DNA of 64,000 bases from Escherichia coli (lineage in GTDB: Bacteria > Pseudomonadota > Gammaproteobacteria > Enterobacterales > Enterobacteriaceae): the NCBI RefSeq assembly GCF_050920415.1, contig NZ_CP169309.1. One strand, given 5' to 3'. Made by a program: the position numbers and the translations under genes. The first letter of the stretch is position 1. Each line of letters starts with the position of its first letter. This document shows, piece after piece, positions 37,291-40,796 of this stretch. Below the pieces are notes generated by a model that saw nothing but the letters and a program-made list of their open reading frames with translations, searched no databases and was not told the origin of the DNA.

Positions 37291-37514
37291 TTGCTTATGT
37301 AAACATTTACACTGCTTACCTGCATGGTGCCGGGTGCCTCCCGGTGAATTCAGTATCAGCACCTGAATCCGCAATTATCCCATATACCTACTTGCTGATT
37401 GCCCCTCCGCACAGGGGGATTCACCATGCGAAATTTTTTTAACAAATGCTCAGTCTGACAGGCAACTGTCAACTGGCTGAATTGTGAGACATTTAAAATT
37501 TTCGGGGCGTAACT

Positions 37515-37679
37515 GATACCCGGTTAACTACCTGGCATGTCCTTTTTCACCAAAGGAAAAAGCACCACCACAATACCGACCACCAGCACTCCATCCGCCA
37601 GCACCGACATGATCCTGCTGGTGAAATCCACCATCACCACCAGAAACAGCAGGAGTGCCACAGCGGCCAGACGCAGTTT
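37515..37679 (-). CDS. Possible small membrane protein (~54 aa, GTG start)
   Basis: Hand-translated VTVKLRLAAVALLLFLVVMVDFTSRIMSVLADGVLVVGIVVVLFPLVKKDMPGS with GGAGAA RBS; below the ORF-track cut-off. Confidence 0.25.
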
Positions 37680-37684
37680 TACCG

Positions 37685-38116
37685 TCACAGGTGGTTCTCC
37701 AGTCGCAGGCCAAGAACACCAGCAATCTCTTCCAGAACCTTACGCTCTTCCGGCTCAATTTCACCATCTGCTTCAGCAATGGCCACCGCCACATCCAGCA
37801 CATCTTCCGCTTCACGCGTATCGTGTTTCACATCTTCAATTTCACGCAACGCTGCACGACGACCAATTTTAAAATTGGTGTCAAGCTGACCTGTGATCGT
37901 GGCACTGATGGCATTAATTTCTGACGTAAACGTGGACAACGCTGGCTGGTTACGTAATACCTGTTCGATCTTCGCTTTCTCTGAAGTCTCACATTCACCA
38001 TCTGCATAGGCCACTAGGTAGGCAGCATTAATAACCGCCTGTGCCAGATCGCGTTTCTCAAACTTTTTAATTTCAGTTGCTGCTCTGCGGGTTTTCTTTT
38101 TGAAAATACCAAACAT
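37685..38116 (-). CDS. TerB-like (tellurite-resistance TerB family) protein
   Basis: 143 aa with paired acidic helices (YLVAYADGECETSEKAKIEQ... / VAVAIAEADGEIEPEERKVLEEIAGVLGL) typical of TerB domains. Confidence 0.5.
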   Translation of the reverse strand: MFGIFKKKTRRAATEIKKFEKRDLAQAVINAAYLVAYADGECETSEKAKIEQVLRNQPALSTFTSEINAISATITGQLDTNFKIGRRAALREIEDVKHDTREAEDVLDVAVAIAEADGEIEPEERKVLEEIAGVLGLRLENHL

Positions 38117-38289
38117 CGTGACTTTTCCTTTTAGTGGGTGAGCCTGCGCCCTGCGGGGACCAGCCCACAGAGAAAGTCACACTGACCATCCCGTAAGCTC
38201 CCCCCTGAAAAGCTCTGTGGTTTTTGATATACGCCGGGCGTGGCGCGGATACAAAAAAGGCCCGCAAAAGCGAGCCAGGAAAATAAGTA

Positions 38290-38366
38290 TGGCGCGTTGT
38301 ACTGGATTCGAACCAGTGACCGATTGCTTAGAAGGCAATTGCTCTGTCCGACTGAGCTAACAACGC
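38290..38366 (-). tRNA. tRNA-Arg, anticodon UCU
   Basis: Cloverleaf GCGTTGTTAGCTCAGTCGGACAGAGCAATTGCCTTCTAAGCAAT...GGTTCGAATCC...ACAACGCGCCA; anticodon loop CTTCTAA. Confidence 0.8.
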
Positions 38367-38379
38367 ATGATGCAGATAA

Positions 38380-38460
38380 TGGACCGCCATCGAGGACTCG
38401 AACCCCGCACCAACAACCCTGTTATCGTGTCGTCTGCTCTTCCTGATGAGCTAATGGCGG
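38380..38460 (-). tRNA. tRNA-like sequence with degenerate anticodon arm; possibly a pseudo-tRNA
   Basis: Good acceptor, D-arm and T-arm (GGTTCGAGTCC) but no clean 5 bp anticodon stem. Confidence 0.35.
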
Positions 38461-38467
38461 TACGTTA

Positions 38468-38542
38468 TGGTGGCCCTGCTGGATTTGAACCAGCGACCTG
38501 GCGATTATGAGTCGCTCACTCTCACCACTGAGCTAAAGGGCC
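38468..38542 (-). tRNA. tRNA-Ile2-like, anticodon CAU
   Basis: GGCCCTTTAGCTCAGTGGTGAGAGTGAGCGACTCATAATCGCCAGGTCGCTGGTTCAAATCCAGCAGGGCCACCA; close to E. coli ileX. Confidence 0.8.
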
Positions 38543-38582
38543 GGGCGCAGGATAATAACGGTACGTAACTAATTCTGCAATA

Positions 38583-39641
38583 TCATCCGTTCTGACTGAC
38601 TAAATCCTGAACTTCCTTGACCGTCTGCTCAAAACGCTCAGTCTCCAGCTCAACGCCAATTGCACGACGTCCCAGCGCCATCGATGCTTTGACCGTCGAA
38701 CCCGACCCCATGAAAAAATCTGCAACCAGATCTCCCGGACGACTGCTTGCGCTGATTATCTGCTGCAACATTTCTGCCGGTTTTTCGCACGGATGTTTCC
38801 CGGGATAGTACTGCACCGGTTTATGCATCCACACATCGGTGTACGGCACCTGCACAGTCACACCGAAATACCGCCGCAAATTTTTATATTCTCTCAGCAG
38901 TTCCGTATACTGCCGGTTCAGTTCACTGTATGTGCTGACCAGCTGGTGGTGTGGCTGCTCCAGTTCACCGCGCTGATGTTTTTCTGCTGCAACACGCGCA
39001 AACAACGCCTGCAATTTGTTGTAATCAGCTTCGTTCGGTAACTGCCACTGACTGGTACCAAACCAGTGCGAAGCCATGTTTTTCTTTCCGGTGGCTTCCG
39101 CTATCTGTTTTGACGTTATTCCCAGTTCGGCACGAGCATCCCTGAAATACGATATCAGCGGTGCCATTATGTGCTGTTTGAGTTCCCTTTCTTTTGCCGC
39201 ATAGCCGTCACTTTTGCCGCGATATGGCCCCTGGTAATGTTCAGCAAACAGAACGCGCTCTGTGGCAGGAAAATATGCGCGCAGACTTTCTTTATTACAC
39301 CCATTCCAACGTCCGGACGGCTTCGCCCAGATGATATGGTTAAGCACGTTGAAACGTTCACGCATCATGATCTCAATATCAGATGCCAGGCGATGCCCAC
39401 AGAACAGGTAAAGGCTTCCGGCAGGTTTCAACACCCGCCAGAACTGGGCCAGACAGTGGTCCAGCCACTTAAGATAATCTTCGTCCCCTTTCCACTGATT
39501 GTCCCAACCGTTGGGTTTCACCTTGAAGTAAGGCGGATCGGTAACAATCAGGTCAATGGAATCATCAGGCAGGGACTGAATAAAATGCAGGCAATCAGCG
39601 TTGATTAAATCAACACTGTTTATTTTTACAGTATTTTTCAT
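38583..39641 (-). CDS. Orphan DNA methyltransferase (beta-class N6A/N4C)
   Basis: DPPY motif (IDLIVTDPPYF) N-terminal and FFMGSGST SAM-binding motif C-terminal; no adjacent restriction endonuclease ORF. Confidence 0.8.
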   Translation of the reverse strand: MKNTVKINSVDLINADCLHFIQSLPDDSIDLIVTDPPYFKVKPNGWDNQWKGDEDYLKWLDHCLAQFWRVLKPAGSLYLFCGHRLASDIEIMMRERFNVLNHIIWAKPSGRWNGCNKESLRAYFPATERVLFAEHYQGPYRGKSDGYAAKERELKQHIMAPLISYFRDARAELGITSKQIAEATGKKNMASHWFGTSQWQLPNEADYNKLQALFARVAAEKHQRGELEQPHHQLVSTYSELNRQYTELLREYKNLRRYFGVTVQVPYTDVWMHKPVQYYPGKHPCEKPAEMLQQIISASSRPGDLVADFFMGSGSTVKASMALGRRAIGVELETERFEQTVKEVQDLVSQNG

Positions 39642-39791
39642 GGATCAGTAAGCGTAACTCTGGTAGGCTCACTCTGCTTTTGCGCTAAAGCAGTGGGCCG
39701 TGGTTCGCTTGTGACCAGTAAGCATGAGCGAATGGCTGGCAGGTGCTACCAACACCCACCAGCCGCCCATTTTCACAGCAGGAAACCGCCA

Positions 39792-40079
39792 TTACTGGCA
39801 GCGTCTGAATTTATTCCCGTACCCGCCGTTATCCTTCGCCAGACCCGCCAGAACTAACTGAGTCAGTATTAACTGGCACCGGACTTCGCTTACTCCGGTA
39901 GTTCTCGTCATCATGCGTGGCGTTACCCACTTGTCAGCAGGTAAGAAATGAAGGACTGCGGCGGCGGTTTCTGTCATATCTTGCTGTTTTAGCATGTTTT
40001 TTCCCTTCTGGTTAACATGACATACCAATAACTCTTGTCTAAAAAGCCAGCAAGATAAAAAGTCAGTATTCACGACCAC
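39792..40079 (-). CDS. Hypothetical protein; start may be the internal Met at 39995
   Basis: ORF only; possible winged-helix-like C-terminus; no family recognised. Confidence 0.3.
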   Translation of the reverse strand: MVVNTDFLSCWLFRQELLVCHVNQKGKNMLKQQDMTETAAAVLHFLPADKWVTPRMMTRTTGVSEVRCQLILTQLVLAGLAKDNGGYGNKFRRCQ

Positions 40080-40119
40080 CAGCGTGTTTACTGTACTGCA
40101 CCAAGTTTACAGGTACAAA

Positions 40120-40145
40120 AAAACCGCTCAGCGGCGGGTTTAAGT
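40120..40145 (-). terminator. Possible intrinsic terminator downstream of Q
   Basis: Coding strand CCCGCCGCTGAGCGG followed by T7; short stem. Confidence 0.35.
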
Positions 40146-40264
40146 TGTGTGGCGAAGTAACCACTCTTAACAGCATATTTGATTTTTTACGATTGTAAAC
40201 GGTTGATTATTCATCTCCAATAAAAATAATTGTGTAGGTATGCCCTTAACAATGGATAAGAAAC

Positions 40265-40711
40265 ATGAATAAAATGACTGTATTATTACTTAGCGCAACT
40301 ATCATTTCAGGTTGTACTTCTTCCGTACCATTGATAAAGAAAACTCAATCAGGAAAACCTGAGGGGGTTTATCAAAATACGACAAAAGATAAAGTCAAAG
40401 ATGCCCTTGTGAATTACTGCAATAGTAGAGGGTTGATAATTTACAACGCGGATAACAGCAGTGTTATATGTGGTAAAGAACTGGAAGGCGGGTCTGCTGT
40501 TTTTGGACAAATGTTAATCGGCAATGCCTATTCAACAACCCCGGTATCAAAAGTCAGATTTACTATCGCTCAAGTTAATAACGATACAAAAGTGTGGGCC
40601 GATATGTGGATGGAAACTCAAATGGCAATGGGGCAAGTACAACAAATGGCTATAACAGACAACGCAAGCAAAAACACTATCCAACAACGTCTTGATGAAT
40701 TAAAACCTTAA
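40265..40711 (+). CDS. Putative lipoprotein (148 aa), AT-rich, opposite strand to the late operon
   Basis: Signal peptide with lipobox MNKMTVLLLSATIISGCTSS; GGGGAG...CTCCCC hairpin after the stop. Confidence 0.6.
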   Translation: MNKMTVLLLSATIISGCTSSVPLIKKTQSGKPEGVYQNTTKDKVKDALVNYCNSRGLIIYNADNSSVICGKELEGGSAVFGQMLIGNAYSTTPVSKVRFTIAQVNNDTKVWADMWMETQMAMGQVQQMAITDNASKNTIQQRLDELKP

Positions 40712-40796
40712 GTAAATTAATTAAATAAAATGGGGAGAAATAAATCGACTCCCCACACATTAAACTGATTCAATTACCCCCTCAATAAGAGATCTT

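Follow-up and report, generated by a model that had tools for sequence, protein, structure and literature searches.

An accessory-gene region between the antiterminator Q and lysis genes of an Escherichia coli lambdoid prophage and its likeness to the toxin locus of Stx phages

Shiga toxin (Stx) phages carry the toxin genes stxAB between the late-gene antiterminator gene Q and the lysis genes. The locus described here raises the question of what a prophage without the toxin holds in this interval, and from which promoter its contents are transcribed. The locus lies in a stretch of 64,000 nucleotides (nt) of Escherichia coli contig NZ_CP169309.1 (assembly GCF_050920415.1), hereafter the window. 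An earlier note, made from the letters of the window alone, described a Q-to-holin cargo island with Stx-phage architecture but no toxin. The locus is an ordinary accessory-gene region of an E. coli lambdoid prophage, placed between Q and the lysis genes, and all its parts and their arrangement are already known, each part belonging to a described family. As a whole, we read it as a late-operon leader followed by accessory genes, in a toxin-less form of the Stx-phage layout, and we give this reading a probability of about 0.8. It is carried by sequence identities, homologies and the boundaries of the slot in which Stx phages hold their toxin genes. The significance of the locus is slight beyond its correct annotation.

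The queried 4.5 kb of the window was 100% identical to the chromosome of E. coli MFDS1022581 (NZ_CP169399.1), on which PGAP already annotates every gene that the earlier note had named. The annotated order, which matches the parts list, is a DUF968 protein, an antiterminator Q family protein, a hypothetical protein on the opposite strand, a hypothetical protein of 67 amino acids (aa), a DNA-methyltransferase, tRNA-Ile, tRNA-OTHER, tRNA-Arg, a TerB family protein, a DUF3927 protein and a class II holin. The prophage is oriented on the minus strand, and along it the elements follow as Q, an opposite-strand lipoprotein gene, the predicted late promoter pR' with its qut element and a hairpin (40199-40117), the 67-aa winged-helix gene, the methyltransferase (MTase) gene, the tRNA promoter pT, ileZ, a decayed argN, argO, a terminator, tciA, tciB, the STnc100 small RNA gene and the holin gene. 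RNAs were assigned with ARAGORN and Rfam, and proteins with PHROG, NCBIfam, PADLOC and Pfam, by which every island protein was placed in an existing family. The PADLOC scan of the island proteins returned MTase models only, plus a marginal match of the TerB protein to PDC-S48 (E 0.0021). The exact mosaic is rare, being at least 80% covered in one place in only 9 genomes; such rarity is normal among lambdoid prophages. The cargo and the lysis gene behind it are as follows.

39792 to 39995, minus strand: stand-alone winged-helix protein of 67 aa, phrog_331 (PGAP coordinates)
38583 to 39641, minus strand: beta-class N6-adenine DNA MTase of the M.EcoGII family, 352 aa, DPPY then FxGxG (PADLOC MTase_II, 1e-154)
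38552 to 38580, minus strand: tRNA promoter pT, TTGCAG, 17-nt spacer, TATTAT, matching the pT feature of phage 933W
38469 to 38543, minus strand: tRNA-Ile2(CAU), the ileZ orthologue (ARAGORN Met-CAT; PGAP tRNA-Ile; Rfam 59.4 bits)
38380 to 38460, minus strand: decayed argN, tRNA-OTHER in PGAP (alignment with 933W argN)
38290 to 38366, minus strand: tRNA-Arg(UCU), the argO orthologue (Rfam 71.7 bits; ARAGORN; PGAP)
38253 to 38276, minus strand: intrinsic terminator after argO, stem of 7 base pairs (bp) with six GC pairs, T run, -13.8 kcal/mol
37685 to 38116, minus strand: TerB-domain protein, tciA in phage records, 143 aa (Pfam PF05099, 1.8e-12; PDB 2jxu TerB, 8.9e-8; phrog_632)
37524 to 37688, minus strand: hydrophobic DUF3927/TciB-like protein, 54 aa (phrog_1470, 1.4e-24; PGAP DUF3927)
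37260 to 37458, minus strand: STnc100 (PasD-related) small RNA, RF02076 (Rfam 148.7 bits against a gathering score of 47)
36747 to 36962, minus strand: class II holin (S), the first lysis gene (PGAP; phrog_9876, phrog_20)

A common order of pR' and hairpin, winged-helix gene (65-67 aa), MTase gene, pT, ileZ-(argN)-argO and terminator was found in Stx2c phages (e.g. Stx2c_EH0430), in phiP27 and in Stx2a phages of the Stx2_EH2201 type, with a DNA identity to the window of about 84-90%. Stx2c phages are about 90% identical to the window over 40140-38242, then carry stx2cAB, and regain homology at 37491-37401, a stretch made up of the 5' part of STnc100 and the bases immediately before it. In phiP27, which carries Stx2e, the winged-helix gene, MTase gene, ileZ and argO are followed by stx2e, and a GIY-YIG gene stands where the window has the lipoprotein gene. 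Window positions 38693-38242 have a counterpart of about 90% identity in phage 933W, comprising its ileZ-argN-argO cluster, pT and the terminator that precedes stx2; STnc100 is present there as well. Exactly where the Stx phages hold stxAB, the window holds a 750-bp TerB/DUF3927 cassette (38241-37492), that is tciA and tciB. The left edge of this slot is the argO terminator, Stx-phage homology ending at 38242, and the right edge is STnc100. The layout of Q, methylase, tRNA, stx, yjhS and lysis genes has already been drawn (PMC3491183, Fig. 5). The comparisons with Stx2c phages, phiP27 and 933W uphold the architecture proposed in the earlier note, and all the features that it listed were found where it had placed them. 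It had also considered that its open reading frames (ORFs) might be fragments of stx-flanking genes; they are intact homologues of such genes. In a tblastn search of the whole window with Stx2A and Stx2B, no match was found below E = 0.36, so that stxAB, the criterion of an Stx-converting phage, is not found here, as the earlier note had said. The region shows the Stx slot to be a general cargo position, edged by the tRNA-cluster terminator and STnc100 and open to other payloads.

Toxin-less phages with the same cassette are known. In JLK-2012 (O55:H7) and PPyecE_EH1910, tciA and tciB followed by STnc100 occupy the slot after Q, as in the window. JLK-2012 has a tRNA cluster before tciAB, but of Asn, Thr and Gly tRNAs, and a different Q. 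In PPyecE the cassette is 98.5% identical to that of the window, with two small genes in place of the tRNAs. Both phages keep yjhS before the holin gene, whereas the window does not.

The second part of the question concerns transcription. The earlier note had regarded the position of the late promoter as ambiguous on account of two terminator-like hairpins. Both hairpins exist, but the one at 37266-37290 is the terminator of STnc100, and a third is found at 38276-38253, behind argO. The features of the late-operon leader and its antiterminator are the following.

40797 to 41162, minus strand: late-gene antiterminator Q, 121 aa, Q933W/QuuD/Q82 family (phrog_79, 2.6e-51; PGAP antiterminator Q family protein)
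40172 to 40199, minus strand: predicted pR', with -35 TTTACA (40199-40194), 16-nt spacer with conserved CGTAAAAAAT, and -10 TATGCT (40177-40172), by homology
40142 to 40165, minus strand: initial transcribed region, predicted +1 the A at 40165, holding the TGGTTACTTCGCC pause/qut element
40117 to 40137, minus strand: hairpin with seven T's, homologous to the first terminator after 933W pR' (terminator scan, alignment)

Window positions 40200-40112 align with positions 1166-1254 of the 933W record (L008), where the annotation of that phage gives pR' as TTTACG-16-TATCAT, together with qut and a first "possible terminator". DLP12 holds an 83-bp counterpart with 85% identity to this block; it is located some 120 nt before essD, and nmpC stands between it and quuD. 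In the Sakai prophage Sp5, which like 933W has a homologous -35/-10, pause/qut element and first hairpin, the start of the pR' transcript and, 258 nt further on, a 3' end have been mapped by dRNA-seq and Term-seq (PMC7547250). Placed on the current Sakai record, this start is an A 7 nt after the homologous -10, corresponding to a +1 at about 40165 in the window. The promoter scan gave pR' a score of 9/12. The 933W qut feature corresponds to window positions 40158-40151, and its TGGTTAC core is invariant across the window, DLP12, 933W, PPyecE and P27, the full TGGTTACTTCGCC differing by at most 2 bases; this is conservation of sequence only. A Q-binding element between -35 and -10 has been published (PMC4914094), with which the conserved spacer CGTAAAAAAT agrees, and we take the latter as a candidate Q-binding element. 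A cognate Q of the PF06530/phrog_79 family is encoded upstream of pR', with 85% identity to DLP12 QuuD and 79% to the Q of 933W. In phages with a more divergent Q, homology to the window starts inside the block, at 40187 (P27) and 40172 (PPyecE), and in Stx2c phages, which show no detectable match to the window Q, it starts at 40140. Such starts inside 40200-40112 are expected if the Q-specific module ends there. The late promoter is thus not ambiguous but placeable by homology, at 40199-40172. On this placement, everything from 39995 to the holin gene would be downstream of pR', and the lipoprotein gene upstream of it.

A start in the A-run at 40188-40183, with TACAAT (40197-40192) as -10 and TATGCT as pause, had the attraction of fitting the slippage reported for the phage 82 promoter. 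We rejected it: its putative -35 and spacer are not conserved in DLP12, the 933W record puts pR' on TTTACG/TATCAT, and the Sakai start falls after that -10.

The arrangement suggests the following course of expression. Q would be made from the early operon. Transcription from pR' would start near 40165 and then meet the pause/qut element and the hairpin with seven T's. After induction, RNA polymerase modified by Q would read through the 40137-40117 hairpin and the terminators of argO and STnc100, and so reach the holin and structural genes. The winged-helix protein and an M.EcoGII-type non-specific adenine MTase would be made first among the late products, and the latter may methylate progeny DNA widely ahead of packaging, which would shield this DNA from restriction in the host infected next. 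ileZ and argO would be transcribed from their own pT and supply tRNAs for rare codons (AUA, AGA). The TerB-domain protein and the translationally coupled small membrane protein of tciA and tciB would be expressed by read-through, and STnc100 would be an independent small RNA gene ending the slot. Q-dependence, timing of expression and protein roles are predicted here from sequence.

Four points weigh against this reading. The start site, the Q-binding element and the Q-dependence are carried over by homology from other phages. The numbering of phage 82 pR' (GCC at +15-17, pause at +25/26; PMC5001585) fits the window only within about 2 nt. The Sakai pR' transcript ends at the second 933W terminator, which lies in a 215-bp segment that is absent from the window. 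Finally, constitutive activity of pR' in lysogens has been reported, and the winged-helix and MTase genes may be transcribed to some extent even without Q.

The last two points lead to the alternative that survives best, namely that a constitutive pR' followed by a single weak hairpin leaves the winged-helix gene, the MTase gene, the tRNAs and tciAB expressed in the lysogen as lysogenic-conversion genes. Between pR' and the MTase gene there is no terminator-like site other than the 40137-40117 hairpin. The stem of this hairpin has 4-5 bp, and at -5.0 kcal/mol it is the weakest of five alleles, those of 933W, DLP12, PPyecE and P27 ranging from -8.2 to -12.1. The length of the Sakai transcript, 258 nt, implies that some polymerases at least get beyond the homologous first hairpin, and the second terminator, at which these transcripts end, is missing from the window. 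Neither is the weak allele a private lesion: it is identical in phage PhiR40_1, and the block occurs at 99% identity or more in 183 complete-genome records. However, the seven-T tract directly behind a GC stem is that of a canonical intrinsic terminator, and the closest phage homologues share the layout with a single hairpin. Moreover, M.EcoGI and M.EcoGII are reported to be silent in their lysogen, and their constitutive expression to be deleterious (PMC5778455). We therefore consider constitutive expression of the cargo unlikely; the strength of the 40137-40117 hairpin decides whether the cargo is late-only.

The 933W leader differs from that of the window on both sides of this block. Its pR' overlaps the end of Q, whereas the window has the lipoprotein gene between the two. 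Downstream, the 215-bp segment, with the 3' part of StxS and the terminator mapped by Term-seq, occupies the place of the winged-helix and MTase genes. In many Stx2a phages of the 933W type, the MTase gene is reduced to its last 37 codons just upstream of pT (L008 1470-1580). In view of this remnant, it appears that either the StxS/tR' segment took the place of the winged-helix and MTase genes or these genes took the place of the segment. DLP12 of E. coli K-12, with the order quuD, nmpC, pR' block and essD, is like the window in having an opposite-strand envelope or outer-membrane gene between Q and the block. It differs in that the inserted gene is the porin gene nmpC, not a lipoprotein gene, and in that no cargo lies between the block and the holin gene.

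The largest cargo gene encodes the MTase, which the earlier note had called an orphan beta-class enzyme. The class and position (38583-39641) hold, but the enzyme belongs to the characterised M.EcoGII family, with 302 of 349 residues (87%) identical to M.EcoGII as given in a machine-read supplement of PMC11551740 that has a few evident errors. The two differ by 47 substitutions and by a C-terminus that is 3 residues longer in the window protein. The motifs TDPPYF and FFMGSGST are intact, with DPPY before FxGxG, which is the beta-class order. Matches to MTase families (NCBIfam, PDB) cover both ends only and leave the middle unmatched, as described for M.EcoGII, in which a Rossmann core (residues 1-134 and 260-349) encloses a helical recognition domain. 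M.EcoGII of E. coli O104:H4 C227-11 is thus like the window MTase in its order of DPPY, central recognition domain and FxGxG, and like it is prophage-borne. Its genomic context was judged from its closest phage homologues rather than from O104:H4 itself: these (93.7% identity) belong to Stx2a phages with the order DUF968, Q, small protein, methylase, tRNAs and stx2. M.EcoGII methylates adenine in any context (PMC5778455); beyond M.EcoGII, this property has been demonstrated only in engineered relatives (PMC5778455, PMC11551740). The window MTase is probably likewise without a sequence motif to find. Given its family, a motif search in the methylome of a lysogen is therefore unlikely to yield a target, and this enzyme should not be tested on the methylome of the uninduced strain. 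In the window, the MTase gene is the first large gene behind the predicted late promoter, a position that would offer a simple explanation for the silence of such enzymes in lysogens; the window MTase, too, would be silenced in the lysogen.

Directly upstream of the MTase gene lies the winged-helix gene, as in every MTase-bearing relative examined (P27, PPyecE, PhiR40_1, Stx2_EH2201). The hypothetical protein of 95 aa in the earlier note is a GTG-extended reading of this ORF, which is present but called as a protein of 65-67 aa by PGAP and in phage records. Its AlphaFold model (pLDDT 81.3) has an H1-H2-H3-wing topology, and Foldseek matched it to winged-helix domains including Z-alpha (TM 0.83), IclR and TrmBL2/TrmB-like proteins. 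One may combine this association with the weak hairpin and propose that lysogens with this allele bear low-level, motif-less N6-methyladenine on the host chromosome, with the linked winged-helix protein as a dedicated controller of the MTase. We regard this joint proposal as doubtful, and as less likely than constitutive expression of the cargo by itself.

The tRNA cluster follows the MTase gene. The hexamers of pT and their 17-nt spacing are the same as in 933W, one spacer base being different, and a primary start site driving the tRNAs has been seen in Sakai (PMC7547250). The earlier note had called tRNA-Ile2(CAU), a degenerate tRNA-like sequence and tRNA-Arg(UCU), and all three were found. 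It had added that failure in covariance-model scoring would speak against these calls; such failure holds only for the middle one, already called degenerate, whereas the Ile and Arg tRNAs score 59.4 and 71.7 bits. For the middle sequence, ARAGORN made no call and Rfam gave no tRNA match at E<=1, matches at low Rfam thresholds being otherwise at chance level only. Compared with 933W argN, this remnant keeps the acceptor, D and T arms and has its anticodon arm replaced, and the P27 form of argN is the same apart from one T-arm base. The ileZ gene lacks one A in the 3' acceptor strand (around 38477), reading CCAGC-AGGGCC against CCAGCAAGGGCC in 933W, P27 and Stx2c phages. With this deletion and one C-to-T change in the D stem, its score is 59.4 bits against 72.5 bits for 933W ileZ. 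The sister strain OkiPb01715 (99.3% identical) has a normal 76-nt ileZ. The 1-nt deletion is private to the present strain, and it is either a genuine lesion or an indel error in the assembly. The terminator behind argO is homologous to the 933W feature "terminator upstream of the stx genes".

Across this terminator begins the cassette that takes the place of stxAB, annotated as tciA/tciB in phage JLK-2012. The TerB-like protein of the earlier note is borne out by its Pfam match, and the possible small membrane partner proposed there corresponds to the hydrophobic DUF3927 protein, whose GTG start overlaps the tciA stop. No other Ter-family gene of the ter operon (terZABCDE) was found in the island, this 54-aa protein being the only partner, so that "tellurite resistance" is a name only, taken from domain similarity. 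tciAB probably has a role related to the envelope or to stress. No promoter match was found upstream of tciA, and therefore expression would be by read-through.

The exchange of tciAB for stxAB could be taken as the mark of a recent ex-Stx phage, of Stx2c or Stx2e type, in which the toxin genes were replaced. The flanks are indeed shared with Stx2c phages (about 90%) and P27 (about 84-87%), and the slot edges agree within a few bases. An identity of only 84-90% in the flanks, however, means that the event was not recent, and Q and the lysis module are unlike those of Stx2c phages. Of 5426 complete E. coli genomes, 1240 carry tciAB, often more than once and in up to 8 copies, and ordinary lambdoid mosaicism suffices to explain its presence here. 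The best matches listed in the phage and genome searches include no phage more than 99% identical to the present one and differing from it only by stxAB instead of tciAB. Recent descent from an Stx phage is accordingly improbable.

The right edge of the slot is STnc100, which the earlier note had missed. The Rfam match is full length (model positions 1-206), with a central part shorter than the Rfam consensus. The copy in the window has the same position after the stx slot as other members of this STnc100/PasD family of prophage small RNAs: according to Rfam it lies 75 nt after stxB in 933W and in an Stx2c phage, and directly after the DUF3927 gene in the window, PPyecE_EH1910, JLK-2012 and strain 2014C-3011. 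Phage PhiR40_1 has the identical Q, lipoprotein gene and block, followed by the MTase gene and directly by the holin gene, and it has no STnc100. In lambda, the leader transcript of pR', the 6S RNA, is similar in size and place to STnc100 here. That STnc100 (about 200 nt, with a strong terminator of -15.9 kcal/mol and lying about 300 nt before the holin gene) should likewise be a pR' leader, with TTGACA at 37472-37467 as its -35 and the whole island upstream of pR' and independent of Q, is nevertheless very improbable, and the least probable of the readings considered: a convincing -10 at a suitable spacing from TTGACA is lacking; the block homologous to a mapped pR' stands at 40199; PhiR40_1 has the same Q without STnc100, which excludes the STnc100 region as the late promoter of this Q type; STnc100 is downstream of stxAB in 933W and Stx2c phages, and stx is transcribed from the Q-adjacent pR' (PMC7547250); and the literature regards STnc100 as a family of stand-alone small RNAs that act in trans and are related to PasD (bioRxiv 10.64898/2026.05.13.724894).

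Between STnc100 and the holin gene, most Stx relatives carry nanS-p (yjhS), an esterase gene, and an anti-sRNA gene (AsxR or AgvB), and their Q alleles differ from that of the window. The anti-sRNA gene stands antisense immediately after STnc100 in 933W (L008 3485-3537), PPyecE (L001 5452-5513) and 2014C-3011 (L004 5354-5415). The window has neither gene, and beyond the STnc100 terminator homology continues directly with the sequence that precedes the holin gene.

Two features lie between Q and the predicted late promoter.

40730 to 40756, minus strand: hairpin and T-rich run between the convergent Q and lipoprotein genes, 8-bp stem GUGGGGAG/CUCCCCAU (RNAfold of 40796-40712)
40265 to 40711, plus strand: lipoprotein gene, 148 aa, between Q and pR', lipobox ISGC

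The hairpin is a candidate terminator for transcription leaving Q. The lipoprotein gene was described in the earlier note as AT-rich and on the opposite strand, and both points are confirmed, its GC content being 37.8% against 50.9% for the window. The protein is a member of a small family in Enterobacterales that has no Pfam domain, and its structural model (pLDDT 85.6) resembles only generic alpha+beta folds. Lying on the opposite strand and upstream of pR', it should be independent of Q, and it is probably expressed in the lysogen.

Elsewhere in the window, PGAP (NZ_CP169399.1) flags at least five prophage genes as frameshifted, at about 14000-56300. These are the genes for tail assembly protein T, the portal protein, an Rz-like lysis protein (34172-34638), an ORF between the holin and lysozyme genes (36103-36743) and a Dam-like adenine MTase of the early region (44392-45044). 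Either the prophage is decaying or these are assembly indel errors. The integrase gene (55013-56269) adjoins yjjG, near the leuQPV tRNAs. Rfam matched a C4 antisense RNA (83.6 bits, 47174-47261) and the Hfq-binding RNA isrK (67 bits, 47286-47362) side by side on the minus strand of the early/immunity region, and gave three matches to naRNA4, a REP-derived nucleoid-associated RNA, in the chromosomal flanks (3938-4114 and 59396-59478). A hypothetical protein of 118 aa, encoded on the plus strand at 35737-36093 between the holin-adjacent frameshifted ORF and the lysozyme gene, represents another opposite-strand insertion in the late operon.

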